Below, in pieces: positions 9,744 through 43,765 of a DNA stretch of 64,000 bases. Positions within the stretch are counted from its first letter, which is position 1, and each line of letters opens with the position of its first letter. This DNA is from Blastocladiella emersonii ATCC 22665. Its lineage: Eukaryota; Fungi; Blastocladiomycota. The notes beneath the pieces were generated by a model. It did not search any database, was not told the DNA's origin, and saw nothing but the letters and a program-made list of their open reading frames with translations. A program made the translations under genes and the position numbers. The stretch covers positions 434,001 to 498,000 of the forward strand of contig JANHCV010000005.1 of the NCBI GenBank assembly GCA_025594325.1, given 5' to 3'.

Positions 9744-10125
9744 TCGGGTCGGATCGGACGCGGGTTTTGTGTAATCTTTGTTGTGTTTGTTTGTCCCTCT
9801 TGCTCTCTCGTCTCCTCTTCTCATAGGTTGTGTGTCACTATCGTATCGTCTACATCGGTTGTTATGGCAGCTTGCTGAGTTCGTGGTCGGAGCCGAGTTG
9901 GGATGGTGGTCCCGCCCATGGCCATGGACACAGTTGCGACCGCGGCCACGCTACGGCGGGTCGATTCATCAAGACCAGCGTCTGCCGGGGACAGAACCGA
10001 GTGTTGGGGTTTCGTTCAGCTTATGGACTGCCTGCTCCGTGACAACACGAAGTTCAAAGTGCACGCGGGAGGTCTTTGCGCGCGAGCGGACCCTGGCAGT
10101 TCCACGCGACGAGTCGTGATGCAAG

Positions 10126-11167
10126 TGTCGTATCCCTTAAGGGATACGACATGGGCTGACCCACTGCCACTCGGGCTGACCAATTGCTTACCCCGAGCGG
10201 TTGGCAGCAGTCACTCGGGGTAACCACGTGAGACCCCGTTGCTTACCCCGGGTGGTTAATAATATGTCGGATTCAAATGTCGGATTCCCTTAGGGAACAC
10301 GACACGCGGGCGGAGGCCGAAGGCCGAAGAAGGGCGGCGGCGGGCGGGGTCACGTGGGTCACGTGCAGATGAACGGCGCGTGGACACGGCTGCGAGTCGA
10401 TCTGCGAGTCGATCTGCGAGACAAGTCCGAGAGCAGATCCCTGAGCCCGTCCCTGACCAACCGCTCGGGCTGACCATTGCTTACCCCGAGCGGTCGGCGG
10501 CGGCCGGCGAGCGCAGCGAGACGAAGAGCAGCGCAGCTGCGGCTACCCACTGACAGAGTTCCCTGGTCTGGTCCCTGAGCACAGCTGCAAGTCGATCTGT
10601 TTGGTCGCGGCAATAGGCCCTTGAAGGCTCTTGGAATAATTCCACGAGAGGTCGGCGGTCAGTCCAAGAACGCAAGCAGCGACCCAGGTCGGCGACCACG
10701 GAGTCACTCCACGAGCCGGCCCACGACTTGGTCGGCGACTTGGTCGCGGCAATAGGCCCTTGAAGGCTCTCGGAATAATTCCACGAGAGGTCGGCGGTCA
10801 GTCCAAGAACGCAAGCAGCGACCCAGGTCGGCGACCAGCCCCTGACGGCTCTCGATGGCCGCCCCGAACTGGACCGGGTTGGAGCTCACTGGACCGGGTT
10901 CAAAGACAACCCGGTCCATGAAATTCGCTCGGGGTAAGCCATGGACCGGGTTGACCGGGTTGACCGGGTTGTTTTAAAGTAACAGTGTAGTGAAAAGGGG
11001 GGGAGGGACCGCTCCAGTGCCACTCTTCCCCCCCTTTCAAATCCCTAAAGGTCAATCGACCCCCTCAACCCGGTCCACCCGGTCCATGGCTTACCCCGAG
11101 CGAATTTCAATTGACTTGGTCCATTGAACCCGGTCCATGGCTTACGGCGAACGATTCAAAGGGCGGG
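10126..11167 (+). repeat. Left terminal inverted repeat
   Basis: Colinear reverse complement of 24928-25969 (paired coordinates sum to 36095 throughout, e.g. identical spurious ORFs 10704-10919 and 25176-25391); about six mismatches seen by eye. Confidence 0.95.
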
Positions 11168-11257
11168 AAACCTGGTCCAGGCTGCCGTGACCCGGTCGCT
11201 GCAAGTACAGTAAACAAAAGGTACAAAGTTGTATTCACAAAGGAGTCTCTGGACTCG

Positions 11258-13600
11258 TTACATCTCGTCTTCGGACAGCTCAACTGTGTACGGTCTGCAG
11301 TACTTGTAGATGCGAAGCTTGCGGCGATTCACGGTGCGACGCGTCACCTCGAAGAGCTCCTGCTTGTTGGCCGGGTTGACTTCGCGCTTGATGTACTCGC
11401 CGAACTTGGTCTGCGACATGGACGAGCGGCCAGGGAAGCGCTTCTCGGCGTACTTGCGGTAAAACTCGTAGAACGCGTCTGCCTCGAGCTCCTGCACGAC
11501 TTCGACCTGGCGCGTGTGGTCCAGGAGGTTGAGCGGGAAGCCGCCGTACTCCATGATGTCCATGGCCAGCGCGGGAACCGGCTCCAGTGCCGCCATGATG
11601 GCGTCGTTGCGGGCCTGGTTGCGCGGGAACTTGGACAGCGTCAGGTGCGAGAGGTCGAGGCGGAGGATGTAGGTAAAGATCTCGTCGGCGTGCTCCTTGA
11701 CAAACGCGTCGAGCTTGCCAAAGTAGTTCTCGTCCTGGCACTTGATGTTGGACATCTTGAGGACGAACTCGCGGCGACCAGTCTTGGTGAGTGGCAGCAC
11801 GTCGCAGTTGTTGGTTGCGATCATAAAGTTGTTGACGTTCTTGACCTCCTTGCGTTTCATGTACTTTTCGTTGACGATGAGCTTGTCCTCGGTGACCATG
11901 CTCTTGAGCTTGTCAAACGCGTTCTTGAGCTCGGCTGGCTTGCTGGAGGGCATCTTGTCAAACAGCACGAGCATCTTGTGGGCGATCTCCGAGTTGAACT
12001 CGCCCTGGAGCCACGTCGGCCCGTTGCTGATGGACACCGTGTTCTTGCGGCCGATAATGTACTGGGCCAGAAGGTGGTAGAACTTGCCCTTGCCCACGCC
12101 CTCGAGACCCGTCAGCAGCAGCATCACGCCATTGGCCTTGCCCGTGGTGAGCAGGCACTGGACCCACTTGAGGACATACGCGTACTCTTCCTCGTTGCCG
12201 CTGCAGACCACGTCGCGAATGTACTCGAGGTACATGGCAATTGACTCGGGCTCAATGTCGCGGCCAAGGTCCATGGCCGCAAACCCGTAGAACGCATTAA
12301 AGTAGTCGACCACGAGGCCGTTCTGGTGCGACGGCCCCCACTGCGGCTTGTGCATGTCAAAGATGAGCGCCTTGACCTGTGGAGCGTACTTGATGGCCCC
12401 CGTGCTGCACGCCTTCTTCACGTTGTCCTCGCCATTGGTGTCCCACGCGTCGGTCACGGTGCGGCGAAAGTACATCTCGCCGACCAGGTCCTTGCGGACA
12501 AACTCGCCCACGTACTTGATCACGGCCTCCTTCCACGACTGCTTGTCCTCGTCCACCTCGCGGCTGAGGTAGTGGGAGATGACCTTGCCGATCCAGTCGT
12601 CGTCGTAGTGCAGGTCACGCTCGAGCTGCACGGCAACAAACGCGGCCGGGTCCTCGCAAAAGTCGGGGAGCTTGCCCTTGTCCTTGGACTCAGGCACCGT
12701 GATCTCCTTCTTGTCCCACTCCACCTCGAAGCCCGTGTACTTGAGCGTGTTGGCGGACATCTTGGCGAGCAGCTCGGCGTTGATGCGGTCGTCCTTCTTG
12801 ACCATGAACCCGTCAAACACAAGCACGCTTGGCACAAGGTCGTTGGCGTGGGCAAAGTCAATGGCGCGCATCAGGAGGATTGACTCGACGGCCTGGAACA
12901 GGTTGGAGAGCACCGAGCCCTTGTTCATGGTCTTGTCTGCGCGAGGCTTGGACGCCTTGACGACGTGCGGAAAGTCCTTCTCAATCAGCTTGTACAGCAA
13001 GCCGTACAGCATGTGGTGGAAGGCCGCGAGCTCGGGGTGCACCGCGTCGCGGTCGACGAACTCGTTGAATAGCATCGAGAGGAACTCCTGCTTATCCCCG
13101 AGCCCCCACTTGGCCAGCGCGGCTGTGCGGTTGGCGAGGTACTGGTCAAAGACGCCGTGGCCAAGGTTGTAGTGCTGGCAGACGCCGCAGAGGATCGACG
13201 GCGCCGCGCCCTTCATGTCAAGGTCCTGGAGCACGCCCTTGGCCAGCGGGCTGCGGATGAGGTCCTTGCTGAAGCTCTGGAGCGACGGCGACGTGGCGTA
13301 GAGTTGGCCAAACTTCTTCTTGACCGAGGTCGACTGCGTGGTGAACGAGTACACAGTCTCCTTGCCATCGCCGTAGCTCGCCTTGGCCAGCGCCGCGTAG
13401 GCCTTGAGCTTCTTCTTGACCTCGGCGTCGATGCCCGAGTACCACGCGCAGAGCCCGTCGAGCACGTCCTTGTTGTAGTACTCGCGCAGCACAACCTGGC
13501 GCGAGTCCGTGAACATGGACTTGGTGTAGTCGAGGGTCTTGGCGATCTTGGTCAGCTGGGGCATGGCCGAGTAGTTACTGTTAAGCACAGAATAAAGCAT
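11258..13600 (-). CDS. TVpol-like (PolA-derived) primase fused to SF3/D5-like helicase
   Basis: N-terminal DLDMKGAAPSIL and VLVFDGFMV resemble TVpol motifs. C-terminal Walker A GLEGVGKG, Walker B region LVLFDK, motif C FMIATNN and GRREF. The real start may be the downstream ATG (MPQL) at 13564. Confidence 0.8.
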   Translation of the reverse strand: MLYSVLNSNYSAMPQLTKIAKTLDYTKSMFTDSRQVVLREYYNKDVLDGLCAWYSGIDAEVKKKLKAYAALAKASYGDGKETVYSFTTQSTSVKKKFGQLYATSPSLQSFSKDLIRSPLAKGVLQDLDMKGAAPSILCGVCQHYNLGHGVFDQYLANRTAALAKWGLGDKQEFLSMLFNEFVDRDAVHPELAAFHHMLYGLLYKLIEKDFPHVVKASKPRADKTMNKGSVLSNLFQAVESILLMRAIDFAHANDLVPSVLVFDGFMVKKDDRINAELLAKMSANTLKYTGFEVEWDKKEITVPESKDKGKLPDFCEDPAAFVAVQLERDLHYDDDWIGKVISHYLSREVDEDKQSWKEAVIKYVGEFVRKDLVGEMYFRRTVTDAWDTNGEDNVKKACSTGAIKYAPQVKALIFDMHKPQWGPSHQNGLVVDYFNAFYGFAAMDLGRDIEPESIAMYLEYIRDVVCSGNEEEYAYVLKWVQCLLTTGKANGVMLLLTGLEGVGKGKFYHLLAQYIIGRKNTVSISNGPTWLQGEFNSEIAHKMLVLFDKMPSSKPAELKNAFDKLKSMVTEDKLIVNEKYMKRKEVKNVNNFMIATNNCDVLPLTKTGRREFVLKMSNIKCQDENYFGKLDAFVKEHADEIFTYILRLDLSHLTLSKFPRNQARNDAIMAALEPVPALAMDIMEYGGFPLNLLDHTRQVEVVQELEADAFYEFYRKYAEKRFPGRSSMSQTKFGEYIKREVNPANKQELFEVTRRTVNRRKLRIYKYCRPYTVELSEDEM

Positions 13601-13728
13601 TTTACTTTGATGCGGAAAAACGCAGTCTGGGAGCAGGGGCGGGGCCGTGCTTTTGAAGCGCTGCGATTATCGCTATTGCTGCTGGCTGTGTCTGGGTACG
13701 TGTGCAGTTAGTCACTGCAAAAAGGTAT

Positions 13729-14202
13729 GGGGGTCAGGCGGGGGTCAGGCGGGGGTCAGGCGGGGGTCAGGCGGGGGTCAGGTGGGCGGTCAGGCGGGGG
13801 TCAGGCGGGGGTCAGGTGGGCGGTCAGGCGGGGGTCAGGTGGGCGGTCAGGCGGGGGTCAGGTGGGCGGTCAGGCGGGGGTCAGGCGGGGGTCAGGTCAA
13901 GGGTGCCAGGTCGGGGGGTCAGGTCAAGGGTGCCAGGTCGGGGGGTCAGGTCAAGGGCGCCAGGTCGGAGGTCAGGGTCGGAGGTCAGGGTCGGAGGTCA
14001 GGGTCGAAGGTCAGGGTCGAAGGTCAGGGTCGGAGGTCAGGGTCGGAGGTCAGGGTTGGAGGTCAGGGTCGGAGGTCAGGGTCAGAGGTCAGGGTCGGAG
14101 GTCAGGGTCGGAGGTCAGGGTCGGAGGGGGGGGGGTGCCTTGTTTGGCATGGCCCATGACTTGCCACCACCCTGACCCTGACCCTGACCCTGACCCTGAC
14201 CC
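13729..14202. repeat. G-rich nested tandem array (GGTCAG-based units of about 11, 23, 27 and 13 bp) followed by inverted (CCCTGA)5
   Basis: Units GGGGGTCAGGC, TCAGGTGGGCGGTCAGGCGGGGG, GGTCAGGTCAAGGGTGCCAGGTCGGGG and GGAGGTCAGGGTC read directly; (CCCTGA)5 at 14170-14199. Confidence 0.95.
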
Positions 14203-14284
14203 AGGCCCAGCTACCCAGAAAAAAGAACGTTGCGTTCAAACGCACTTGAGCCCATGGAGCCTTTTTGTTGACAGTCAGTAAACC

Positions 14285-15412
14285 ATGTCGCTCGAGTCTC
14301 TTGCCTCCCAGGTCGCTGTTGCCCTCGCTCAGCATGTTGCCGCAGACGTGGTGCAGCAAGTCATGGACAAGCTCCAGCCCGTATTTGGGTCTATTGACAA
14401 GCGCTTCAAGGACTTTGACGCGCGACTCAAGGCCATCGAGTCACATGACCCAGATCACGGCGCTGATCAGCAAGTCACTCCTGTGGAAGTCGACACCCCC
14501 AAGGTCAAGTTTGCCAAGCTGACCAAGGATGCCATCAAGGCATGTGTCAACGCGCCTGTGGTGGACAAGAACGGGGAGCAGGCCACGCTGAGCGACACGG
14601 ACAAGACCAAGACAACTCGCGTGCTCCTTGCATTTGCCAAGTTGGGCATGGATATCCACAACGTCGATGCCGTGTCCAAGGCCGTGGCCACGTACCGCGC
14701 GATCAAGGGGTCCAAGAACGTCCAGGGTCTGCAGGTCGAGACGCTCAAGGCCCTGGCCAAGTACTGCACCTGGAACGGGTGGACCGAACTCGGGGCCAAG
14801 TACACAGAGGCCAAGAAGCAGGACGCTGCTGACTTCCGCGACGCGCGCAAGGAACTTGAGTCTGGTGCGCTCCCAAGCCGTGACGCCATTTGCGCCGCTA
14901 TTGTTGATGCAAAGGGCTCGGGCACGGGGCTCCTGCGTCTGTACCTCCAAGTTGTGAGTGCGGTGCGCTCCGACCCTGCGTTCCTGACCACGAAGCCAAC
15001 CACTGGGTACCCGTACTACGACCCAGAGACCCAGATTCTGGCCGGCGATGTCATTGTCAAGACAGAGGGCTGTGGCTACAACTTCTCGCACACAGTTAGT
15101 GAGCCCAAGGTCGCCGCCGCTCTCAAGCGTATCCTTGCCCAGCGTCTCGCCGAAGGTCATGACTTTGTCTTCAACAACTACACCCTCGAGGAGCTCAAGG
15201 ACACCACGCTCTGCAAGAGGGTTAGCAGCACCTGGTGTACGTCGATTAGTTGGGCTGCAAAGACGGTCGGCTTTGAGGATGGCGGCGTGGCAGTGATCCG
15301 CCGTATCTCCACCAGTGAGAACTTTGCTGCGCAGCAAGCTATTGCCAAACGCGCGCACGAGATGGGTCACAGCGTCCCCATTGCGCTGACCTACTACATG
15401 ACGCCTCAGTAA
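14285..15412 (+). CDS. Tyrosine recombinase (PLV type)
   Basis: Catalytic-like residues in the expected order: R (SAVRSD), K (VKT), R (VIRRI), H and Y (MGHSVPIALTYY, Tyr at His+9). Confidence 0.75.
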   Translation: MSLESLASQVAVALAQHVAADVVQQVMDKLQPVFGSIDKRFKDFDARLKAIESHDPDHGADQQVTPVEVDTPKVKFAKLTKDAIKACVNAPVVDKNGEQATLSDTDKTKTTRVLLAFAKLGMDIHNVDAVSKAVATYRAIKGSKNVQGLQVETLKALAKYCTWNGWTELGAKYTEAKKQDAADFRDARKELESGALPSRDAICAAIVDAKGSGTGLLRLYLQVVSAVRSDPAFLTTKPTTGYPYYDPETQILAGDVIVKTEGCGYNFSHTVSEPKVAAALKRILAQRLAEGHDFVFNNYTLEELKDTTLCKRVSSTWCTSISWAAKTVGFEDGGVAVIRRISTSENFAAQQAIAKRAHEMGHSVPIALTYYMTPQ

Positions 15413-15440
15413 TCCTTTTGTCTCCGCCTTTGTTAATACA

Positions 15441-16553
15441 ATGTATGCCCACGAAGAGCCGCTCACAGACGCACAGCAAGCATTCCTGACAGACTTGTAC
15501 TACAAGCGCGGCCACGTAGGTGTTGGCATCCGTCAGCTCTTTGACATTGTGTCCAGAGAGAACACAGGGAAGCACATCTACCGCGCCCAGCTTGAGAGAT
15601 GGCTCGGCGAACAGTCTGTGTGGCAGCAGTACAAGCGCGCACCTCAGAAGCGCCGAGACATTCGAAGCATCAACTCAACAAGTCCTGGCCGCAACTTTCA
15701 GCTCGACCTCATTGACATGGGCGAAAATGGTACGTACAAGGGCTTCCGTTACATTCTTACGTGTGTCGACCTCGCGAGCAGGCGTGTGTTCCTCCAACCC
15801 ATCAAGACCAAGGACAAGACGCGGGAAGCATGGTCCAGCGTGGTCGCCAAGCACAGCCTTGCACCTGCCACGATCCAGACGGACAATGGGACCGAGTTCT
15901 TTGGCATAGAGGCCGGGACCGAGGCCAAGCACATCAAGGGCAAGGCAGGAGTGCCATACGGTCAAGGTGTTGTTGAACGCATGAACGGGACCATCCGCCG
16001 GATGCTCACACCGTGGCTGTCCATCCCGGGCAACAACGACTGGCCCAAGCACCTCGAGACCATTGAATCTGTGATCAACAGCAGCAAGTCGAGGGCCACA
16101 AGCAAGGCACCCAACGCGTTCCATGACATGCCCCGCGAAACGGCCAAGCAAGAGCTCAAGGAGATCCGAGCTGCCAAGGGCAAGCCCGAGGGCGACCCTC
16201 TGAGCGCGTTGTTGAAGGTAGGGACCCAGGTCCGAGTCTGCGAGCCGTACAAGACTGCCATGGAGGCCAAGGGGAAGCCGGTCTGGTCGACAACTGTGAG
16301 CCAGGTCCAGGTCGTGCGCAAGGGGTCGGGCGTAAGCAATCCGAGCTACAAGGTCCAAGGCCTCAAGGGCTTCTACCCTCGAAGCGATGTCCAGCCAGTC
16401 ACAGCGACCCAGGACCCGCCAACAAGGCAGCGCGTAGGTCCAGGTCTTCCAAGGCTCCCTGTTGCGCGCACCCCAGTCACGCCAAGGGAGCCCTCGACCC
16501 GGGTCAGGCGCGTCCCAGTCCGAGTCCAAGAAAAGTGGGACCGCGGGCTTTAG
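15441..16553 (+). CDS. DDE (rve) integrase of Maverick/Polinton type
   Basis: D (FQLDLIDM), D (IQTDNGTEF), E (VVERMNGTIRRML); N-terminal YYK..G...QL...WL..Q motif; C-terminal LKVGTQVRV...W...Y module. Confidence 0.92.
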   Translation: MYAHEEPLTDAQQAFLTDLYYKRGHVGVGIRQLFDIVSRENTGKHIYRAQLERWLGEQSVWQQYKRAPQKRRDIRSINSTSPGRNFQLDLIDMGENGTYKGFRYILTCVDLASRRVFLQPIKTKDKTREAWSSVVAKHSLAPATIQTDNGTEFFGIEAGTEAKHIKGKAGVPYGQGVVERMNGTIRRMLTPWLSIPGNNDWPKHLETIESVINSSKSRATSKAPNAFHDMPRETAKQELKEIRAAKGKPEGDPLSALLKVGTQVRVCEPYKTAMEAKGKPVWSTTVSQVQVVRKGSGVSNPSYKVQGLKGFYPRSDVQPVTATQDPPTRQRVGPGLPRLPVARTPVTPREPSTRVRRVPVRVQEKWDRGL

Positions 16554-18493
16554 AGCAGGGTCCAGTGGCTTTGAATGATGACCTGGCAGTCGTTGGCAAC
16601 TGCGACTGACGGGATCCAGATGAAAGAGTAGCTCTTGGCCGCGTCAAGGTACTCAATGCTCGAGAACTGAAGGAACTGGACATTGCCTTCAGCACGGCAC
16701 CCGGTGACAAGCGACACTGCAATCATGTCCGTCATATTGTACAGCGCAAAGTTCACAGTGTGGGCTCCAGGGAGCGCGCCGTTTGCGTAGTAGCCCTTTG
16801 CATGGACAAGGTAGTAGCCACTGACAGGGGGTTTGACGCATCCATTGATCACAGACGTGAACGCGCCCGCTGTGGACTGGAACGCAAAGGTGGCCGGGCC
16901 CGTTGATGCTGTGCCGCCAATGATCTTGCCGCCCGTGGTCACTCCGTTTGTAGAGCGGTGCTCGGCCTGAGCGACGTACCGGGTCGTGCCAGACCGCGAG
17001 TCAACGTACGCCTTGTTTGCCGCGTCGGTGCCTGCCACTGGAGCGAGGTCAAGGGTGAGCTGCCCTGTGAAGCGACCAGTGCCATTGACGCGGAACCTTT
17101 CTGTGCCAAGCGTCGCCGAGCCCACGACCACATTGCCGCCACCTGCCACAAGGGAGACCCCGCCCGTGGTTGCAGACGCAATCTCAATGTTACCCGCCGC
17201 TGTGCATGCCAGGTTGCTTCGCAGTACGCCTGCCTGCTTAAAGTCGACGTACGTCAATGTATTGGCAGCCGAGTCAAAGACAAGGTTCGCGCTTGTGGCA
17301 TTCCAGACCAGGACGTTGGGCACAGTCAGTTGCTTGCCAACTCCAAGACCACCAGCAATGGTGACTGCTCCAGTGCTTGATGTCAAACTGTCCGTCGTAT
17401 TTGCAAAGGCAAAGGCAGCGCCGAGTCCAAGGGTGGACTGGGGGAGCGTGCCAGTGACCGAGGCTGCGCTCACGGCCGTGACCTTGGCCGAGACGTCGGG
17501 GAGTCGTGCCAGGTCAATGGTCCCTGCAAGCTTGGCCGAGTCAATGCCAGATGCCAGCTTGGCGTTGGTCAGGGTCCCGTTGGCGATGCGGGCAGGGTCA
17601 AGGATCCCAGTGAGCTTGACCGCCGACACGTCCGCGACCTTGGCGTCTGTGACTGCGCCTGCTGCCAGGTGGGCTGTTCCAATGGACCCGACGTTGAGCT
17701 TGCCCCCATCAATGCCAGTTGCCAGCTTGGCGTTGGTCACGGCCGCGTCTGCCAGGACCAGGGAGCCGACCGTGCCCGCTGCCAGCTTGGACCCGTCGAT
17801 GCCAGCTGCCACCTTGGCGTTGGATACAGCACCGTCTGCCAGGGCTCCCGTCCCAATAGTCCCTGCAACGAGCTTGGACCCAGACACAGACGCGACCTTG
17901 GCATCTGTGACTGCCAGGTCAATGAGAGCCACTGTGCCGACTGTGCCTGCCACGAGCTTGGACCCAGACACGGACGCGACCTTGGCATCAGTCACTGAGC
18001 CGTCTGCCAGGACCGAGGTCCCAACTGTGCCTGCCACGAGCTTGGACCCAGACACGGACGCGACCTTGGCACCAGTCACTGAGCCGTCTGCCAGAACCGA
18101 GGTCCCAACGGCTGGGAGGTTGGACGCACTGAGTACGCCCACAACCTTGGACGCAGACACAGTGTCCAGCTGAGCATCAACGAGCTTGCCTGTGACCTGC
18201 CCTGCTGTAATTGTGGCGACCTTGTTGGCCGTGACGCTGGCTGGGAGCAGCTGTGCCGTGCCAACCGACTTGACATAGAGCCCTGCTGCGCCCACGCCAA
18301 GGGTCTGGTTGTTGACCTTGGCCGACACAGTGGTCCCTGAGACTGCCACGCCAGGGCCAGCAACAGGTGTGCCAACCGTGGCGTACACGGCACTGATGGC
18401 CGCGTCAACGTAGGCCTTGGACACGTCTGGGACCCCCGTGGTAGACACGGTCGGAGACGCAGTACTTGAGACGTTAAAGATATTCTTGACCAT
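16550..18493 (-). CDS. Fibre/spike-like virion protein with 28-aa repeats
   Basis: Repeats GTVGTSVLADGSVTDAKVASVSGSKLVA (84-bp DNA units at about 17870-18110) and PVAGTDAANKAYVD, a motif typical of viral tail fibres. Probable start MVKN at 18493, preceded by the element's TTAAAC motif. Confidence 0.7.
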   Translation of the reverse strand: MVKNIFNVSSTASPTVSTTGVPDVSKAYVDAAISAVYATVGTPVAGPGVAVSGTTVSAKVNNQTLGVGAAGLYVKSVGTAQLLPASVTANKVATITAGQVTGKLVDAQLDTVSASKVVGVLSASNLPAVGTSVLADGSVTGAKVASVSGSKLVAGTVGTSVLADGSVTDAKVASVSGSKLVAGTVGTVALIDLAVTDAKVASVSGSKLVAGTIGTGALADGAVSNAKVAAGIDGSKLAAGTVGSLVLADAAVTNAKLATGIDGGKLNVGSIGTAHLAAGAVTDAKVADVSAVKLTGILDPARIANGTLTNAKLASGIDSAKLAGTIDLARLPDVSAKVTAVSAASVTGTLPQSTLGLGAAFAFANTTDSLTSSTGAVTIAGGLGVGKQLTVPNVLVWNATSANLVFDSAANTLTYVDFKQAGVLRSNLACTAAGNIEIASATTGGVSLVAGGGNVVVGSATLGTERFRVNGTGRFTGQLTLDLAPVAGTDAANKAYVDSRSGTTRYVAQAEHRSTNGVTTGGKIIGGTASTGPATFAFQSTAGAFTSVINGCVKPPVSGYYLVHAKGYYANGALPGAHTVNFALYNMTDMIAVSLVTGCRAEGNVQFLQFSSIEYLDAAKSYSFIWIPSVAVANDCQVIIQSHWTLL

Positions 18494-18513
18494 GTTTAAC
18501 CTTAAGCAACAGA

Positions 18514-18765
18514 ATGATTTCCAGCGACCATGACCTGAGCCTGGACGAGTGGCGGGAGCACCTTGCCGGGACCATGCCCGTGCCAAGCAGCTGGTACAGC
18601 AAGAGCGACGAGGACAAGGCCAAGTGGCTACGGAAGCGCGACCGCAAGGCCAACCGGTACACGCACGTCGACAACGAGGCAGCGCGGGCAGAGCGGGTCA
18701 AGATCCGGATCTACAAGGCACTCAACGCCAAGCGCCGGGACCAGGGGGCAAATAGCACCGTCTGA
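18514..18765 (+). CDS. Small basic viral protein (83 aa), unknown
   Basis: Fills the gap between the fibre gene and the 571-aa gene; element-like codon usage; K/R-rich C-terminal half. Confidence 0.55.
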   Translation: MISSDHDLSLDEWREHLAGTMPVPSSWYSKSDEDKAKWLRKRDRKANRYTHVDNEAARAERVKIRIYKALNAKRRDQGANSTV

Positions 18766-18842
18766 GGGACAAAAGGCACCTGCCACGGGGAAAAAGGTAC
18801 CGACAGGGGGACGTTTTATTTTCGGTCCATACAGTAACCATC

Positions 18843-20558
18843 ATGGGCCGAAGAACAGTACCAGAACTACTCACAAGAGTGACCAAGGCAACTGACGGCC
18901 GCATCACGGCTGAGCGCCTTGCAGGGCAGAAGATCAAGGCAACCATTGATGGCCGCGAGTACACGTTCCCCAATGCCAAAGAGCTCCTCGACGTCTGGGT
19001 GCCTTACATCCTTGCCTTTGACTACAAGGTGACGCCCAAGAGCTATGCCAACGACTTTGGCCGCAAACGAGGCGACTCGCTGTTCTACCTCAAGCACCAG
19101 GACGGCGTCACTGGGTACGAGGTCAAGGACCTCCAGGAGCACGTCCAAGACACGCTTAAAGCGTGGGAAGAGCACCAGGCAACGGGCAAGGTCACTCGAG
19201 TCCCAGTCGCTCCACCAGCGGCAAGCCCCAGACCAGAGGCCCCCGAGTCGGCCACGGACAGCGACAGGGGCAGCAGCGAAGAGGAGCGCGACGAGCTGGC
19301 AGAAGAGATCTCGCGAGCCCTGGACGTCATTGACGAGGACGCTGTACCGGACCACTTGCTCCCCGTGCCCGTCCAGCCAGTCATGCCCGAGCAGTACCCG
19401 GTCGAGGCCGGCGACTATGTTGGTCAAGACATTGACGAGTACGGCGCCATGATCCCCGGCCAGTACCTGATCCAGAATGACAATGACGGCGGCAACGACC
19501 CGCCCCCAAGGCTTGACAACGGCACCCGCGACCTCGTGGTCATGCCACCAAGCTACGGCCCGGACGTGGCACAGCGGCAAGGCGTGTACAACGAGGGTCA
19601 CGTCCACCCGGCCATGGACGAGGCACGCATGATTGAGGGCTCCAAGGACTTGCAGGTCTACAACCCCGAGCGGGCGCTGACAACCACGGACGACATGGAG
19701 GTTGACGTTGTCCAGAACTTTCAACAGTTTAACCAGTTCGTGTACAACAGCTACACGCAGCAGAACACGCAGAACGTCGACATGCGGCAGTTCATCACCC
19801 AGTACGAGAACAACTACTACGAGCAGAACGTGGACATGCGGCAGCAGATCCTGGTCCGGTACAACAATGACCCAAACGTCATGGCCGCGCTCGAGCTCAT
19901 TGCCTCGCAGTTTGCCGGGTCCCAGGTCATGCAGTACCAGGCGTACCAGGCGCTCATCGAGCAGTCGGCGGCCGCTCAGGGACTGGCCATGGACGCATTT
20001 GCCAACCTCGCGTCCGGGATCGTGGACACGCTCCGAGCCAAACGCAACGACTTTGTCCGCCAGATTGACGCTGGCAACCGCGCGCTTGTGTCTGAGATTG
20101 CCACGGGCATGTCCTCTGCGCTCAGCAACCAGCAGGTGCTCATGAACCAGCTCGCAAGCGGCGTCCAGGGCGCGATCCAAGGGCAGACCCAGAGCAACGA
20201 GGCCATGACCAAGACGCTCCAAGACCTTGGGTCCAAGCTGGACACGATCCCTGCACCCCAAGTCATTGTCCAGCCTGCCGACACAAGCGGCCTCGAGGCC
20301 ATGATCAGGGAGCTGGCCGCGCAAAACAATTCTGGCGGTAGTTCTAAGAAGACCGACATGCTCCTCAAACAGATCCTCAAGCAACTGGGCTACAAGAAGC
20401 CGACCGACGCGAAGCTGTTCACAGACAAGCGGGCAGCGGGTAGCGGGCTGACAGCGCCCAAGATCCAGCGTCACCAGAAGATCCCTGAGCGGCCCGTCAA
20501 GCAGGTCTGTGAGACCCCAAGGCGCAGCGGCATTGTGCTTGACCTCGGCTGGGACTGA
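18843..20558 (+). CDS. Viral orphan protein (571 aa; acidic middle, Q/N-rich helical C-half)
   Basis: Long intronless ORF in the + strand cluster; preceded by T-rich tract and CAGTAACCATC-ATG; internal repeat QNVDMRQ twice. Confidence 0.8.
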   Translation: MGRRTVPELLTRVTKATDGRITAERLAGQKIKATIDGREYTFPNAKELLDVWVPYILAFDYKVTPKSYANDFGRKRGDSLFYLKHQDGVTGYEVKDLQEHVQDTLKAWEEHQATGKVTRVPVAPPAASPRPEAPESATDSDRGSSEEERDELAEEISRALDVIDEDAVPDHLLPVPVQPVMPEQYPVEAGDYVGQDIDEYGAMIPGQYLIQNDNDGGNDPPPRLDNGTRDLVVMPPSYGPDVAQRQGVYNEGHVHPAMDEARMIEGSKDLQVYNPERALTTTDDMEVDVVQNFQQFNQFVYNSYTQQNTQNVDMRQFITQYENNYYEQNVDMRQQILVRYNNDPNVMAALELIASQFAGSQVMQYQAYQALIEQSAAAQGLAMDAFANLASGIVDTLRAKRNDFVRQIDAGNRALVSEIATGMSSALSNQQVLMNQLASGVQGAIQGQTQSNEAMTKTLQDLGSKLDTIPAPQVIVQPADTSGLEAMIRELAAQNNSGGSSKKTDMLLKQILKQLGYKKPTDAKLFTDKRAAGSGLTAPKIQRHQKIPERPVKQVCETPRRSGIVLDLGWD

Positions 20559-20584
20559 CGCCCTTTTTTGTTGGCAGTCTTTAA

Positions 20585-21382
20585 ATGTACGACATTGTTG
20601 CCATTGACAACGGCTTTACGCGCAACAACGACGGCGAGCCGCTGCCGATCCCCAAGCACCCGTTCACCATGAACGTCATTGGCGCCAAGGGTCAGGGCAA
20701 GTCGACGCTGATCGCAAACATGGTCTGCTTCCCGCACTTTTACAAGGGCCAGTTCGACAACATCTGGGTCTTTAACCCGACGTTCCACGCCGACAACAAG
20801 TACGAGTACATTGCCAGTCAACCGATCCTGCGACCGCCCAAGAAGGAGCGCAACGTGCTGGACCCCCAGGAGCGCGACCCGGACCGGCTCAAGATCAAGC
20901 CAAGCTGCATCGTCACGGACCCCGAGCAGTTCATCCCGACCCTGCTCAAGATGCGCCAGGACCTGACCAAGACATTCGAAGAGTCTGGCAAGAAGGCGCT
21001 CCAGGACCAGCTGCTGATCATTGACGACGTGCTTGGGCTCAAGCTGCTGAGCCACAGAACGCTGACCAACTTTCTGTGCAACTCGCGGCACTTGAAGATC
21101 AGCTGCATCATTGGCGTCCAGCGGTGGTGTGCCCTGCCCAAGACTCTGCGCATCAATTGCAGCTACAGCGTCGTCTACCCAATCTATGACAAGACCGAGG
21201 TCCAGACGCTGCACAAGGAGATTGGGTCGCAGTTCGACCTCAAGGAGTTTGAGGCCATCATTGAACAGCTCTTTGACACGCGTACTGGCAACACGAAGCG
21301 ACGCTTCCTGGGCGTCAACAACCAGAACCCGCCCAAGTACCGGCTCGTAGACAGCTTCAGCGAGTGGATCGTGAAGCAGTAG
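20585..21382 (+). CDS. A32-like (FtsK/HerA superfamily) DNA packaging ATPase
   Basis: Walker A GAKGQGKS, Walker B LLIIDD, SRH motif and GVQ sensor in the A32 order. Confidence 0.93.
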   Translation: MYDIVAIDNGFTRNNDGEPLPIPKHPFTMNVIGAKGQGKSTLIANMVCFPHFYKGQFDNIWVFNPTFHADNKYEYIASQPILRPPKKERNVLDPQERDPDRLKIKPSCIVTDPEQFIPTLLKMRQDLTKTFEESGKKALQDQLLIIDDVLGLKLLSHRTLTNFLCNSRHLKISCIIGVQRWCALPKTLRINCSYSVVYPIYDKTEVQTLHKEIGSQFDLKEFEAIIEQLFDTRTGNTKRRFLGVNNQNPPKYRLVDSFSEWIVKQ

Positions 21383-21422
21383 ACTCTTGACTTTTTTTTG
21401 TTGCCGAGTCCTAAACTAAACC

Positions 21423-22643
21423 ATGTCCAGTACCAACGCCCAGTTCTCGCAGGTCCTGTCCAAGACTCTCCCTCCTGAGATGTCGTTCAACCTGCCCAAG
21501 GAGTCCGTCTATGCCGAGCGCCAGACCGTCCAGTTCACGGCTCAGGGCGGCCCCGAGTTTGCTCCTGGCAACAGCATCAGCGTCCTGCTCCCGCCGCGCG
21601 ACGACATGATGGACACGCACTGTACTTTCCTGCAGTTCTCGGCCAAGACCACGGACGCCAACGTCGCTTTCTGCGATGGTATCTTCAGCGTCATTGACTG
21701 TGTCCGCATCTACAGCGCGTCCGGTGCCCTACTCGAAGAGCTCCCGTACTACAACCTGCGTCAGCGCATCGAGGCCGACGTGACGGTCCCCCAGTACCTC
21801 AAGGACTCGTGTCTCGGCGTGGCACAGGGCTACTTTGCGTCTGGTGCGGACAAGTTCGCTGTCTCGTCCGGGCTGCACCGGTACATGCTGCCCATCAAGT
21901 CGGCCCTGCTGGCAAACCAGAAGCACCTCCCAATGAAGTACACGGGCGGCATCCGCGTTGAGTTCACCCTCGCACCTGGCAGTGACGCCTGCATTGTCAA
22001 GAACAATGCCATCCCGGGCTACACAGTCAAGGACGTCTGCATTGTCTCGGACCTGATCAAGCTCAACGACCAGCAGATCGCGGTCATGGACGCGGCCTTC
22101 AAGAAGCAGGGCCTCAAGCTCTTTGGCACGACCTACAACCACCACTTCCTGAACTACTCGGTGCCCAACTCGACGCTCAACATCTCGGACCGCTCGGCCT
22201 CACAGAAAGACATCCTGCTGTCGTTCCGCGACAATGCCGTGCTCAACGACAATGCCAAGGACTCGTTCCTTCGTGCCAAGACCATTACATCGTACCAGTT
22301 CAGCGTGGCCGGCCGACTCTTCCCTCAGCGACCCATCCGCTGTGACGACTACGCGTCTGAGGCGTTTGTTGAGCTGACCAATGCCTTCCATGGCCACGTC
22401 ATTGGCGCTGGCCTCACAGTTGACAAGTTCAACGCGCCGGCCGAGGGTACCTTTGTTGTCGGCCGTGACCTTGAGTCAAGTCGCACCGTGGTCAGCGGCG
22501 ACAAGTCTTGCAAGAGCCAGGCCGTGGACATGCAGGTGATCCTGACTTCAAGCGTGGCCCCGAACCAGCGCGTGGACGCCTTCATTGGCATCGACGTGGT
22601 CTACGAGTTCCTGCCAACCGGCGAGATCAACATCTACAAGTAA
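21423..22643 (+). CDS. Double-jelly-roll major capsid protein (PLV type)
   Basis: 406 aa; EFAPGNSISVLLP, SVIDCVRIYSASGALLEELPYYNL and YQFSVAGRLFPQRPI resemble PLV/Maverick MCP motifs; lies between the ATPase and penton genes. Confidence 0.85.
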   Translation: MSSTNAQFSQVLSKTLPPEMSFNLPKESVYAERQTVQFTAQGGPEFAPGNSISVLLPPRDDMMDTHCTFLQFSAKTTDANVAFCDGIFSVIDCVRIYSASGALLEELPYYNLRQRIEADVTVPQYLKDSCLGVAQGYFASGADKFAVSSGLHRYMLPIKSALLANQKHLPMKYTGGIRVEFTLAPGSDACIVKNNAIPGYTVKDVCIVSDLIKLNDQQIAVMDAAFKKQGLKLFGTTYNHHFLNYSVPNSTLNISDRSASQKDILLSFRDNAVLNDNAKDSFLRAKTITSYQFSVAGRLFPQRPIRCDDYASEAFVELTNAFHGHVIGAGLTVDKFNAPAEGTFVVGRDLESSRTVVSGDKSCKSQAVDMQVILTSSVAPNQRVDAFIGIDVVYEFLPTGEINIYK

Positions 22644-22685
22644 CGGCCCTGTCCTTTCTTTTCTTGCGTAGAGTTAAACCCCGCC

Positions 22686-22952
22686 ATGATCTTCCGTAAC
22701 CTCTGGACCAACTTTAGCAATGTGCTCGGCCAGGTCGGGTCCTTTGTCAACAAACACATGCCGACCGTCCTCAAAGGCGTCAAGACTGTGTCCAAGTTCT
22801 TTGAGCGGTCGCACAACCCCGCTGTGAGCTCCATTGCGCAGATGGTGACCAAGGGCGCCGACCTTGCCCAAGACATTCACACCTGGTACAACCGACCAAC
22901 AAGCGAGATCTTTGAGGCAGACGCTGACGACACGGGGACAGCTGTACAATAA
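22686..22952 (+). CDS. Small protein with N-terminal amphipathic helix (88 aa)
   Basis: IFRNLWTNFSNVLGQVGSFVNKHMPTVLKGVKTVSKFF; preceded by T-tract and TTAAAC motif; between MCP and penton. Confidence 0.7.
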   Translation: MIFRNLWTNFSNVLGQVGSFVNKHMPTVLKGVKTVSKFFERSHNPAVSSIAQMVTKGADLAQDIHTWYNRPTSEIFEADADDTGTAVQ

Positions 22953-22970
22953 ATTGTTGTCTTTGTTTAA

Positions 22971-23714
22971 ATGTCCGAGTACAAGACGCTGACCATCTGC
23001 AGCCGCGACCTCAAGAACGGCATCCTGTACCTACCACGACCCCTGTCCGTGCGCGGCGTCAAGGTCAACTCGGCGTACCTCTGCAACAGCTGGCACACGG
23101 TCAACTCCAAGGCCAACAAAGTGTACCTGACCCAGAGCCGTGGCGCGCTGACGTTCCCGGGCACCATCACCGTCCCTGATGGCAACTACACGGTCGAGAC
23201 GTTCACGGCCACGCTCAAGAGCCTGCTCAACAACGCGCCCTCAGCGTACCTCTGGCAGGGCACATGGGACGTCCAGGTTGACTCGACTACCCAGAAGATG
23301 CGCCTGGCCAACAACACGGTCGACTTTACAATTGGAACAGGGACGGCGTCGCTGAACGTCCACATGGGCTTTGTTGGAGCGTATGGCTACAGCAAGGTCC
23401 AGTACGCGTCGGCGCTGGTCAACATCTCGCCCATCAACCTGCTTCACGTCTACTCGCGCAACCTTGGCACCCGGCTCGCGGACAACATGTACAGCGCGTA
23501 CCCACAAGACAACGGCGTACTTTGTAGCATCCACGTCACGCAACCCTTTGGCAGCTGGTTCGAGCATCGACCACACATGGGCGACTACTTTCGCTTTGAC
23601 GCGCAGGGACAGGCCCAGCAGATTGACTGTATTGACATTGACGTGGTAGACGAGAACCTGCGCTCTGTCGACTTTCTTGGCCAACCCTTCTACGTCGAGC
23701 TCGCGTTCATCTGA
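22971..23714 (+). CDS. Minor capsid protein (penton, single jelly roll)
   Basis: NSWHTVN..N, ITVPDGNYTVETF...L..LL and IDIDVVDENLRSVDFLGQPFYVEL follow the penton pattern of PLVs and virophages. Confidence 0.85.
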   Translation: MSEYKTLTICSRDLKNGILYLPRPLSVRGVKVNSAYLCNSWHTVNSKANKVYLTQSRGALTFPGTITVPDGNYTVETFTATLKSLLNNAPSAYLWQGTWDVQVDSTTQKMRLANNTVDFTIGTGTASLNVHMGFVGAYGYSKVQYASALVNISPINLLHVYSRNLGTRLADNMYSAYPQDNGVLCSIHVTQPFGSWFEHRPHMGDYFRFDAQGQAQQIDCIDIDVVDENLRSVDFLGQPFYVELAFI

Positions 23715-23745
23715 CGTTGACTTTAATTGTTGTTGTACTGTAAAC

Positions 23746-23847
23746 ATGATCCTCGAGACGCTCCTTGTTGCCACCAACGCCCTGATCCTTGTAGCCAACC
23801 TGGCCATTGTTGGGTACACAAGCAAAGTATTCCACGCCGTAGAGTAA
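23746..23847 (+). CDS. 33-aa hydrophobic micro-ORF (below the ORF-track cutoff)
   Basis: MILETLLVATNALILVANLAIVGYTSKVFHAVE*; preceded by the same T-rich/TAAAC-ATG context as the other viral genes. Confidence 0.5.
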   Translation: MILETLLVATNALILVANLAIVGYTSKVFHAVE

Positions 23848-24343
23848 GCAACGACATGTGCTTTAAATTCTTTCTGCGAAGGCATAGTAAGACACAGGAC
23901 AATGAATACTGGCTCTACTGCATCAACGCCCCGCGCACCTTCCACGAGCATCCCTTGGACTGGCCGTCCGGGCCCCCAGTCAACAGCCAACTACACGGCC
24001 ATCCACGACGTGGCCCTGCCAGGTGCCAAGGTTGTGTACACTGTCTGCTTTGAATAGATCCTTCAAGTTAACTTGGTTAGCTACCTTGAAGCCTTTACTG
24101 GTCGCACTCAGACTACCCGGCGGTATGTGTACTTGTGCCCGCAGCACGGGTACACGACTTGGACCCACAGCAGCTCATTGTCATGGACCCAGCTGGGAGC
24201 ATCATAGTGATCGCATGGCGGCTTGGGCAGGGGGGCGATCTCTTTGATACAGCCTCGCATAGTTACAGTAGTCCAACAAAGTTTAAATTGACAAACGCAT
24301 TCAACGCACTTGGCATGACGTAGCAACGGGACACACTACGGCG

Positions 24344-25248
24344 TCGTGGACCCGACCAGGGCCCCTGCCCACTTTTTGAACAGCTCGCCGTAAGCCATGG
24401 ACCGGGTCACGGCAGCCTGGACCGGGTTTCCCGCCCTTTGAATCGTTCGCCGTAAGCCATGGACCGGGTTCAATGGACCAAGTCAATTGAAATTCGCTCG
24501 GGGTAAGCCATGGACCGGGTGGACCGGGTTGAGGGGGTCGATTGACCTTTAGGGATTTGAAAGGGGGGGAAGAGTGGCACTGGAGCGGTCCCTCCCCCCT
24601 TTTCACTACACTGTTACTTTAAAACAACCCGGTCAACCCGGTCAACCCGGTCCATGGCTTACCCCGAGCGAATTTCATGGACCGGGTTGTCTTTGAACCC
24701 GGTCCAGTGAGCTCCAACCCGGTCCAGTTCGGGGCGGCCATCGAGAGCCTTCAACGGCCAGTTTGCCGACCTTGGGTCGCCGACCAGTTGCAGCAGCGGC
24801 CGTGGAGCGAGCCGAGAACCATCGTGGACCCGACCAGGGCCCCTGCCCACTTTGAACCGTTCGCCGTAAGCCGTGGACCGGGTCGCCCGCCCTTTGAACC
24901 GTTCGCCGTAAGCCATGGACCGGGTCGCCCGCCCTTTGAACCGTTCGCCGTAAGCCATGGACCGGGTTCAATGGACCAAGTCAATTGAAATTCGCTCGGG
25001 GTAAGCCATGGACCGGGTGGACCGGGTTGAGGGGGTCGATTGACCTTTAGGGATTTGAAAGGGGGGGAAGAGTGGCACTGGAGCGGTCCCTCCCCCCCTT
25101 TTCACTACACTGTTACTTTAAAACAACCCGGTCAACCCGGTCAACCCGGTCCATGGCTTACCCCGAGCGAATTTCATGGACCGGGTTGTCTTTGAACCCG
25201 GTCCAGTGAGCTCCAACCCGGTCCAGTTCGGGGCGGCCATCGAGAGCC
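24344..25248 (+). repeat. Tandem duplication (period about 480-500 bp) of the inner TIR segment at the right end
   Basis: Units 24344-24749 and 24822-25248 both start TCGTGGACCCGACCAGGGCCCCTGCCCACTTT and end GGCCATCGAGAGCC. Confidence 0.9.
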
Positions 25249-25969
25249 GTCAGGGGCTGGTCGCCGACCTGGGTCGCTGCTTGCGTTCTTGGACTGACCG
25301 CCGACCTCTCGTGGAATTATTCCGAGAGCCTTCAAGGGCCTATTGCCGCGACCAAGTCGCCGACCAAGTCGTGGGCCGGCTCGTGGAGTGACTCCGTGGT
25401 CGCCGACCTGGGTCGCTGCTTGCGTTCTTGGACTGACCGCCGACCTCTCGTGGAATTATTCTAAGAGCCTTCAAGGGCCTATTGCCGCGACCAAACAGAT
25501 CGACTTGCAGCTGTGCTCAGGGACCAGACCAGGGAACTCTGTCAGTGGGTAGCCGCAGCTGCGCTGCTCTTCGTCTCGCTGCGCTCGCCGGCCGCCGCCG
25601 ACCGCTCGGGGTAAGCAATGGTCAGCCCGAGCGGTTGGTCAGGGACGGGCTCAGGGATCTGCTCTCGGACTTGTCTCGCAGATCGACTCGCAGATCGACT
25701 CGCAGCCGTGTCCACGCGCCGTTCATCTGCACGTGACCCACGTGACCCCGCCCGCCGCCGCCCTTCTTCGGCCTTCGGCCTCCGCCCGCGTGTCGTGTTC
25801 CCTAAGGGAATCCGACATTTGAATCCGACATATTATTAACCACCCGGGGTAAGCAACGGGGTCTCACGTGGTTACCCCAAGTGACTGCTGCCAACCGCTT
25901 GGGGTAAGCAATTGGTCAGCCCGAGTGGCAGTGGGTCAGCCTATGTCGTATCCCTTAAGGGATAGGACA
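24928..25969 (-). repeat. Right terminal inverted repeat
   Basis: Reverse complement of 10126-11167. Confidence 0.95.
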
Positions 25970-27046
25970 GCAAGGATTAAACAAGCAACACGACGCGAAC
26001 GATACATGCACCAAAAAAAAAACATCGCCGTCCTCGCGAGAGATCGGCCACTGATGCAGGGCACATAACCAGTCGCGTCGAAACGACAGCCGCGTCAACC
26101 TGGCCGCGTCCATCGCGAGTTTACTCGTGACGCCTTCCGCGCGACACAAGGACCTAGCCAAGGTATCGAGGGCTAAAGCCCTCTATTTTTCCCTAGGTGA
26201 CGTGCCCGGTAGGAGCGTGACGTGTCTCCCTGGCCCACGTGCGTCACCCACGTGTTTCACGCGTTTCACGGGATATAACCAACGCGTCCGAGTCTCCCAC
26301 CACCAAGCTCTCTCGCCTGCAGTCAATCGTGATAGTAACAAAAAAAAATCAAATATTGTGAATGAGAGGACAGCAACAACAAAAGAGGGAAACCGAGGAA
26401 GTGGAGAGAGGAACACGACGTCGTTCAGTTAACTGCGGCCGCCGCGGCGGCGGCGGCGCTTGGGGACCGCCTCAAACTCGTCCTCGTCGACGTCACCGCC
26501 CTCTTCGGCGGACATGGCGGCCGTGCGCTTGGGCGCGTCAGCGGGAACGGCCGTGGCCGACGCGACCTCGCGATCCGTCGTGCCCGCCTCCTTGATGATG
26601 GGCGCCGCGAGCGCGACTGTCGCACTTAAAGTCGACGGCGACGGCGACGCGGCTGACGAGCCGACCGGCGGCCCGGCGGGCTGTACGGCGGTCGAGAGCG
26701 TCGAGGTCGACGACGACGAGGCGACGGTCGCGTCGACCTGCGAACGGCGGGCTGCACGGCGGTCGAGGACGACACAACGACGCGTTGGTGATCTGCGGTG
26801 CAGCGGTCTGCACGGCCGTCGTCGAGGAGGACGACGAGGCGACGCCGTCGTTGAGCTCGCGCAGGATCCCCGCCATGCGCGTCGTGAACTTGGGGTCCGA
26901 GTCGCCCTCCTTGTCGGGCACGTCAAACACGAACCGCGGCTGGCGCACGGGCGAGGACAGCGTCAGCCCCGAGCGCCGCCATGCCCACGGTGACAACGAG
27001 GTGGTAGGGCAAGGAATCTGCAGCGAAGCGCAAGCGGTTCCTCGTC

Positions 27047-36378: not shown

Positions 36379-36449
36379 TGCGCGCACCGGGAATCGAACC
36401 CGGAGCTCTACCTTGGGAGGGTAGAATTTTACCATTAAACCATGCGTGC
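36379..36449 (-). tRNA. tRNA-Gly (CCC)
   Basis: Cloverleaf: anticodon stem CTACC/GGTAG with loop CTCCCAA, T-arm CCGGG-TTCGATT-CCCGG, discriminator A, downstream TTTT. One A3:C70 mismatch in the acceptor stem. Confidence 0.88.
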
Positions 36450-36822
36450 TTGCTTATCATCAAAGCAGCAGCGACAACAAACGTCGTCCCAGTGGCTGAA
36501 GGCCACACGTTCAAGTAGTGCACCGAATTCTCACAATCCGGGCATAGCGATCGCGTCGCGAACCACAACGACGACGCAAAAATCATGTGAGACGGACGGG
36601 TGGGAGTTCGGTTGGGTGGGCTTGCTCCAAGCGGCAGCGTTCAACCTCCCCCCTCCACTTCATGGTCACATGGGCAAGCTGTGCATTGCGCCACAACCGC
36701 GTGGCTGAATGCGTTGGCGAGGGCCGAAACCTGGCGCCAGGATTTCAGAAGGTCTCTATTGCTCCTCGCTGATAGACCGGCACATGGCAGCTGCCCACAT
36801 GTAACTTGCCGCAACGAAATCT

Positions 36823-38614: not shown

Positions 38615-38768
38615 ACTGTACTTCTGTGCAGCCAATATATTTGCGAATTGTTCGCTGTTTTTCGATCTTGCAAGTGGCTTAAACTCACGTGAGTGGCGCG
38701 ACGCGTGCAAGCTCACACTCCCCCCACAAAAGCTGTCAAGGACCAATGAGACAGGCAGGCCATGACAT

Positions 38769-43220: not shown

Positions 43221-43765
43221 GGTTGCGTGCGTTCATTCAAAGGTGATGGCGGGGGGGGGGGGGGGGGAGCGAGAGAGAGGGAGCGAAGTCGCGAGGTTGC
43301 GAGGGGAGAGCGGGCGGACAGCTTGCACCGCGACTGCCGCAATCCGGTGCCCGCCAAGTCCCACGTGGGCGGCGCCGCACCTGCGACGAGCCCATGTGAT
43401 CAATCACATTGGCGCGTTGCACCAAGTCTTCGAGCGCTTCATCTGTTCCTTTGACCGAGCTCTGGAGCGGTCGAGCGGCGCTGAGGCGCCAGCGTGGCAC
43501 GACGCGTCGCGTCCACTTCTTGTCTCGCGGGCGGTCGTCACTTGTGTCCCAAGTCCAACAGCCTGCACGGGCGCGATATAATTGCCACAGGGACAACGAG
43601 ATCCAGAGAGAAAGCTTCGACCGAACGACGCGCAGCGCCGTAAATAGGCTCGTGAAGCAGTCAGCGCGCGCGTCTCACCTTCGCTCCCGAATCCGTGCGC
43701 AGCCATGTCTCGAACGCTCATAACCAAAGACCTGCTGCACATGCAACATGGCGCAACCGCTACCA

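Follow-up and report, generated by a model that had tools for sequence, protein, structure and literature searches.

What does a tyrosine recombinase do in a provirus that carries a second integration-type enzyme, an rve (DDE) integrase, in the adjoining gene? The question is raised by a 64,000-nt stretch of the genome of Blastocladiella emersonii ATCC 22665 (contig JANHCV010000005.1, 434,001-498,000, forward strand), hereafter called the window, to which all positions refer. It contains a 15,844-bp element (10126-25969), most likely a provirus of a Polinton-like virus (PLV), in which the open reading frames (ORFs) of both enzymes are intact, lie on the same strand and are separated by 28 bp (Table 1). 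A preliminary description of the locus had taken this adjacency of intact genes for a division of labour, which we likewise consider plausible; its further proposal that the recombinase may be a telomere resolvase is not supported by our analysis. We tentatively favour the view that the tyrosine recombinase (YR) acts by ordinary Cre/Xer-like strand exchange on palindromes at the ends of the element, while the rve integrase integrates it. Published work is cited after excerpts of the respective sources.

The ends of the element bear an rve signature

The element starts with TG and ends with CA, is bounded by terminal inverted repeats (TIRs) that differ at 9 positions over 1,054 nt, and is flanked by 5-bp target-site duplications (TSDs). 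These features had been read as the mark of an rve integrase, and the recombinase had on this ground been excluded as the maker of the insertion; the ends were confirmed as described. Since TSDs are, in addition, mostly absent from PLVs that have a YR only (PMC12220804), the chromosomal insertion was very likely made by the rve integrase. The match of the latter to PF00665 (E 1.7e-6, 28.7 bits) lies under the cut-off of 32.6, and its catalytic triad D89, D148 and E179 has a D-to-E gap of 31.

The outermost 26 bp of the left TIR form the longest perfect palindrome of the window, for which the chance expectation is 0.002 per 64 kb. A 60-mer from this end has a folding energy of -16.6 kcal/mol and forms a stem of 11 bp at its 3' end. 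The inner edge of the palindrome reads CATG at the left and CATA at the right copy. About 150 bp inside each TIR, a degenerate copy of the palindrome is accompanied by a direct half-site (10265-10304; 25791-25830), and both could possibly be accessory binding sites for the recombinase or the integrase. The right end is longer than the left one owing to a tandem copy of the inner TIR part (24400-24915, period about 499 bp).

The neighbouring gene encodes a predicted tyrosine recombinase

Sequence searches with the recombinase (Pfam, PHROG, NCBIfam, PDB) gave nothing meaningful, a search of 1.84 billion representative proteins found 4 proteins, and PF00589 weakly matches 2 of 17 family members. 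An AF2 model built from 17 sequences reached a pLDDT of 76.5, and its best matches in VIA-align were XerA (Z 10.2, rmsd 3.8, 146 residues aligned), XerH (Z 9.7, rmsd 6.0, 242 residues) and Cre (Z 9.4, rmsd 6.8, 242 residues); these Z values are middling, the top ranks are filled by recombinases and topoisomerases IB, and a further VIA-align run gave a similar result. The preliminary description had proposed a structure comparison with TelN, TelK and ResT versus Cre and XerD: in Foldseek XerA (E 0.008) and Cre (E 0.011) lead and TelA (E 0.016, rank 5, TMq 0.34) follows close behind, all with E values above 0.001 and none of them significant. With an earlier model from 8 sequences (pLDDT 47.6), XerA (E 0.12) and TelA (E 0.17) scored too much alike to be told apart. 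Among viral models, the five matches at E ≤ 0.001 comprise four giant-virus proteins, two of which are named integrase or tyrosine recombinase, and one unnamed protein; an example from the top is A0A076FML9 of an Aureococcus virus (E 2.7e-4, TMq 0.53). In a language-model atlas, the recombinase has a similarity of 0.98 to Preplasmiviricota clusters of 287-291 aa, with 178-186 of 256 features in common, and one of the matching clusters carries PF00589 on 16% of its members.

The predicted catalytic residues K259, R339, H362 and Y371 are invariant in all 18 full-length paralogs (down to 57% identity; one shortened gene model that lacks the catalytic domain is excluded from these counts), and R228 is found in 16 of them. 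A distant relative (P0050, 25% identity) has kept the catalytic residues as well and shows an LRH motif, with Arg at the His-II position. The distances R339-H362-Y371 are 23 and 9, those of the relatives 23-27 and 9, and the canonical spacing of tyrosine recombinases is 23/9. The His of the HxxR motif is not evident, as had been noted before: Ala336 takes its place, and the paralogs have either Ala (12/18) or Gln (6/18). From the model, its matches to XerA, XerH and Cre and the conserved R-K-x-R-H-Y set we conclude, in agreement with the preliminary description, that the 375-aa protein has a tyrosine-recombinase fold; it is a predicted and apparently active enzyme of a type that is widespread among PLVs, virophages and giant viruses.

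The provirus belongs to a multi-copy family

All close homologues of the element's proteins are annotated as B. emersonii proteins, so that this free-living zoosporic fungus is very likely the host, and the provirus is multi-copy. Of the 22 named recombinase loci found, at least 15 have a capsid gene no more than 7 locus tags away, when 15 of the 26 members of the main capsid cluster are used for the count; since most loci thus lie near a capsid gene, the recombinase is a stable gene of the family. Its adjacency to the integrase recurs, because a gene model of a divergent copy from a sister family (P0043) is a fusion of both.

Sequencing evidence was taken from contigs of four DNA runs of one sample, in which rare forms are dropped. 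In one run (X1), at least 13 of the 64 contigs over the terminus join other flanks at 10122-10126, i.e. at the outer edge of the palindrome, which argues that insertions keep the whole palindrome. Among the 13 junction contigs listed, two match four flank bases of the present insertion (10122-10125) and two match three, possibly owing to a target preference or to an effect of alignment extension. Another run (X4) contains two contigs in which the outer arm of the palindrome is altered, and in one of these the TIR that follows has diverged as well. Strand-switch joints were absent from the contigs of all four runs, both at the terminus and among the joints listed for the element. The contig depth of the element in run X1 is 7-22x that of the flank contig, a value that is not a copy number. 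Run X4 further shows a loose end at 17633, which resembles part of a loxP site and which we take to be most likely a library linker.

The CpG observed/expected ratio is 0.91 (depleted) in the element versus 1.27-1.29 in the flanks, and the recombinase of the present copy differs from most paralogs by R-to-C and R-to-W changes at CpG codons. The present copy may be decaying.

A proposed cycle of strand exchange and integration

YRs accompany PolA/AEP replicases in PLV-type viruses (10.64898/2026.10.13.758929), an end module of inverted repeat, primase-helicase and YR has been proposed (PMC11296320), and excision by a PLV YR has been suggested (10.1101/2025.10.09.676808). Because YRs track these replicases and the recombinase gene adjoins the replicase as in the end-module model, we favour a role at the ends of the element. 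The recombinase would synapse both 26-bp terminal palindromes, each of which is a symmetric 10-6-10 core-type site, and strand exchange would produce a circle in which a single palindrome joins the TIRs, leaving a one-palindrome scar between the TSDs. By the same exchange, replication dimers in head-to-head orientation would be resolved to monomers with no hairpins made, and inversion, the other outcome at a directionless symmetric site, would be harmless because the ends of the element are inverted repeats. The TVpol-helicase would replicate the genome, possibly primed from a folded-back end. At each edge of the palindrome in this junction, the integrase would nick one strand after CA, so that both ends would receive the whole palindrome as a 3' overhang, able to fold back; insertion of these overhang ends with a 5-bp stagger, followed by fill-in, would restore palindrome and TSD at both ends.

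Several points weigh against this cycle. The palindrome is only a candidate substrate of the recombinase, and the solo-palindrome scar and the circle junction are predicted products. H362 and Y371 lie within the C-terminal 30 residues of the model, which are of low confidence. Palindromic ends were also described in one subtype of PLVs that, as a group, are reported to be without the YR and rve pair (10.64898/2026.07.28.741278), so that the palindrome may serve replicase and integrase alone. At a sister locus (P0053/P0014, locus tags five apart), a 98%-identical capsid protein is paired with a 39%-identical recombinase, which is, judged from these sequences, module swapping within the family. 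The published default for virophages with both enzymes is integration into a giant virus (PMC8547959; 10.64898/2026.07.28.741278). Finally, the same geometry fits a hairpin-ended genome, so that the models cannot be told apart by the ends alone.

Alternative roles of the recombinase

Following this default, the recombinase would integrate the virus into a giant helper virus, the rve integrase would serve the fungal chromosome, and the palindromes would be there for self-priming replication and for the integrase only, a combination that we regard as possible but rather unlikely. Integration into a helper virus has been proposed for the two-enzyme virophages among the mid-GC EMALEs (PMC8547959) and in Halocafeteria (10.64898/2026.07.28.741278), the OLV11-like YR of PgVV has been linked to integration into PgV (PMC4642659), and giant viruses (Mycodnaviridae) infect Blastocladiomycota (PMC13533422); the nearest viral folds of our recombinase are, moreover, giant-virus YRs. 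However, helper-virus integration has the status of a proposal in the cited excerpts, our literature search found no helper virus for B. emersonii, and the recombinase gene lies in the replicase-side end module.

Also unlikely, in our view, is a recombinase that travels with the replicase module as an exchangeable passenger, or one that works elsewhere than at the ends, for instance in concatemer processing for packaging or in transcription regulation. Proteins of the YR fold with such roles exist (VLF-1, SroF/MrpR), and the VIA-align matches of our model include SroF (Z 9.3) and MrpR (Z 6.5). Barth et al. model YR and primase-helicase as an end-invading module, after which rve is lost (PMC11296320), and the exchange of recombinases between copies with near-identical capsids fits a passenger as well. 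However, no subfamily, down to 25% identity, has lost the catalytic residues, and many loci still have both enzymes; this suggests that catalysis is under selection.

The improbable case is the hairpin telomere resolvase put forward in the preliminary description. It would cut the palindrome 6 bp apart at CTTAAG, seal the hairpins, free the provirus and resolve dimers; the integrase would later open the hairpin after CA, and the full palindrome would be regenerated at each end. The core CTTAAG is self-complementary and 6 bp long like protelomerase targets, although it is only a candidate target of the recombinase, and its symmetry suits the 6-bp stagger common to all protelomerases (PMC3558466). 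Hairpin formation and recombination are close activities, between which single substitutions toggle TelA (PMC12270096), and phaeoviruses, which are eukaryotic viruses, encode telomere resolvases (PMC13236599). TelA and TelK were also Foldseek matches of our model, whereas the 50 entries listed per VIA-align run (cut-offs Z 5.5 and 6.7) include no protelomerase.

The catalytic centre speaks against a resolvase. In TelA (Y363) and ResT the His-II position is occupied by Tyr (PMC3558466), a residue that none of the 18 paralogs has there. Since this position varies in the viral family (Ala, Gln and, in P0050, Arg), the missing His is no clue to a resolvase. The earlier remark that it is missing in protelomerases too but is not diagnostic holds in its second part; the likeness is looser than it implied, with Tyr in TelA and ResT and Lys in TelK. 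The spacing of 23/9 differs from the 28/11 of TelA (R366/H394/Y405), and in TelK, where His-to-Tyr is 9, the first gap alone makes the difference. Four residues behind His-III, the place of the hairpin-driving Asp, Asp or Glu occurs in 0 of 24 family proteins; this residue drives hairpin formation in TelA (D398) and ResT (D328), and its loss suppresses hairpins and allows recombination (PMC12270096). The telomere-resolvase family of Pfam matches none of 17 members at E ≤ 1, a weak test in view of the two matches to PF00589 itself. In the viral fold library, a 509-aa protein of phage VHML, presumably the VHML protelomerase (rank 37, E 0.13), and an EhV-86 protein with a ResT/TelK domain (rank 49, E 0.22) stand far below the giant-virus YRs. 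Hairpin excision would, furthermore, break the host chromosome and cap the break with hairpins, and palindromic ends are known from the PLVs reported without the enzyme pair (10.64898/2026.07.28.741278). We thus give little credence to a hairpin-forming resolvase that evolved independently from viral YR stock, with a hairpin-ended linear genome that rve would open after CA so as to leave the terminal palindromes behind like giant P-nucleotides, although such a cycle, if true, would be a new one of replication and integration in PLVs and could explain why palindromic ends appear in many of them.

Other genes of the element and its surroundings

The remaining features of the element are listed in Table 1. 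In the atlas, the N-terminus of the replicase reaches a similarity of 0.84 to a cluster of which 44% of the members carry PF00476, which is a lead only; together with its motifs this makes it probably PolA-like (TVpol). The Walker B motif of the helicase reads DK instead of the usual DE (11954-11956, minus strand), which may be a copy-specific inactivating change. The 406-aa protein is presumably the major capsid protein, partly on its motifs; profile and solved-structure searches with it and with the 247-aa putative capsid protein remained without match, and the virophage capsid families that match an IMG/VR virophage contig (L001, see below) do not match the 406-aa protein. A Pfam scan of 11 ORFs of the element found no protease family. 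With an A32 ATPase, a length within the range of 14-40 kb and long TIRs, the element is probably Polinton-like.

Table 1 Features of the probable Polinton-like element in the window.
Feature	Position	Strand	Basis or remark
Left target-site duplication GCAAG	10121..10125	+	same letters as 25970-25974
Left terminal inverted repeat, 1,054 bp	10126..11179	+	inverted-repeat search (99%)
Left terminal palindrome, perfect 26 bp, TG...CA, symmetric 6-bp core CTTAAG	10126..10151	.	candidate recombination site and fold-back end
Degenerate internal copy of terminal palindrome, 27 nt	10278..10304	.	11/13 positions pair; mirror copy 25791-25817
Replicase, 780 aa, C-terminal SF3 helicase, probable PolA-like (TVpol) N-terminal domain	11258..13600	-	PF19263 E 1.8e-17; primase PHROGs E 3.7e-26
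G-rich tandem repeats, units of 11-13 nt	13706..14153	+	between divergent replicase and recombinase genes; repeat search
Predicted tyrosine recombinase of 375 aa with a core of about 305 aa (about residues 68-375)	14285..15412	+	predicted catalytic R228, K259, R339, H362, Y371; Ala336 at His-II
rve (DDE) integrase, 370 aa	15441..16553	+	PF00665; triad D89/D148/E179
Repetitive fibre-like protein, up to 678 aa	16550..18586	-	PF09327 E 9.4e-9
571-aa protein without significant family match	18843..20558	+	ORF; Pfam and PHROG scans
A32-like packaging ATPase	20585..21382	+	PF04665 E 1.5e-12
Putative major capsid protein, 406 aa	21423..22643	+	size, place beside ATPase; cluster of 26 members and two relatives at 37-39%
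88-aa ORF and 247-aa putative minor capsid protein	22686..23714	+	sister copies annotated as one 303-aa gene model; putative capsid role
Right terminal inverted repeat	24916..25969	-	preceded by partial tandem copy of inner part (24400-24915)
Right terminal palindrome	25944..25969	.	one mismatch, outer arm
Right target-site duplication GCAAG	25970..25974	+	matches left flank; 5-bp TSD

Just outside the element, an ORF at 27344-28939 has a PIF1-like helicase match (E 7.5e-12) and possibly belongs to another mobile element. A cluster of LRR/FNIP-repeat and ankyrin-repeat genes lies downstream of the provirus (30416-45526), and at 55609-58746 two direct repeats of 53 bp, which lie about 3 kb from each other and enclose inverted repeats, are possibly a small transposon.

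Meaning of the enzyme pair

The pair of YR and rve is already known in virophages and is reported to be essentially absent in PLVs; in cryptophyte-centred PLV sets (n = 8,300), both occur together in 12 elements, always by way of nested retrotransposons (PMC12220804). The Blastocladiella family seems to represent a PLV that has an intrinsic pair of the kind so far reported mainly from virophages, and it unites YR, rve and terminal palindromes in a probable PLV of a blastoclad fungus. Our literature search, which lay outside the supplementary tables of the large PLV surveys, found no publication on a polinton-type or endogenous virus of B. emersonii, and none that links a protelomerase with a polinton. 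By what route PLVs and virophages exit the host chromosome, and how they copy their ends when they have no protein primer, is an open question, and the cited excerpts mention no biochemical test of their tyrosine recombinases. With a 26-bp candidate site, two adjoining enzymes, about 20 copies and several recombinase subfamilies (identity classes of 98, 85, 65, 57 and 39%) in one culturable fungus, the family offers a compact test case for strand exchange at the end palindromes.

Comparison with known systems

Searches of IMG/VR and metagenomes by recombinase, capsid or ATPase gave no related element with DNA context, and the palindrome pattern had 0 matches in IMG/VR. The closest rve integrase found in IMG/VR (31% identity) is that of the virophage contigs L001 and L002, the 27 other integrase loci being weak matches (E 3e-5 or worse). 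Like the present element, both contigs have the integrase directly beside a YR-like ORF (P0010, with Lys at His-II; a YR by motifs only); they differ in their Sputnik-type capsid proteins and convergent gene orientation, and P0010 has no detectable similarity to the B. emersonii recombinase. On L001 (9995-12125), P0010 overlaps the end of the integrase gene on the opposite strand. The virophage record behind L001 has inverted ends without a long palindrome, which is uninformative since the record is rated 76% complete.

Another parallel is offered by OLV11-like YRs (PgVV/Gezel-14T), where a YR lies beside a TVpol-SF3 helicase in a TIR-bound PLV (PMC4642659, 10.1101/2022.07.28.501842), although OLV11-type PLVs are generally without rve. 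The Aureococcus virus behind one of our top fold matches is reported to encode such a YR, possibly the matched protein itself. By size (a class of about 290-330 aa), atlas similarity and giant-virus folds our recombinase is a candidate member of this type.

The mid-GC EMALEs of Cafeteria burkhardae are likewise endogenous, with TIRs, TSDs of mostly 3-5 bp, a long primase/helicase in place of pPolB, and both YR and rve (PMC8547959). They are, however, virophages with a protease and a mavirus-type capsid, whereas the Blastocladiella element shows no protease gene among the ORFs scanned, no match to a virophage-capsid family of Pfam and a fungal host; the excerpts of PMC8547959 do not mention terminal palindromes, a term for which no specific search was made.

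Terminal palindromes are described in one preprint, on the endogenous virophages and PLVs of Halocafeteria seosinensis (10.64898/2026.07.28.741278), in which palindromes next to the TSD go with non-pPolB replicases and certain rve integrases, some elements have both rve and YR, and hairpin priming has been proposed. There, in contrast, only virophages have both enzymes, the palindrome shown is 52 nt long, and the excerpts of the preprint name no role for the YR at the palindrome. Palindromes occur in four virophage subtypes and one PLV subtype, and since the pair is virophage-only, they need not depend on it.

Protelomerases (TelA, TelK, TelN, ResT) and the phaeovirus resolvase, finally, resemble our system in catalytic chemistry, fold family and the symmetric 6-bp core of a palindromic target, here a candidate target (PMC3558466, PMC12270096, PMC13221069, PMC13236599). 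Protelomerases differ from our enzyme in the His-II residue, the motif spacing and the hairpin-driving Asp. In phaeoviruses the palindrome is internal and integration is left to a separate YR, whereas the Blastocladiella element has terminal palindromes and is integrated, very likely, by its rve enzyme.

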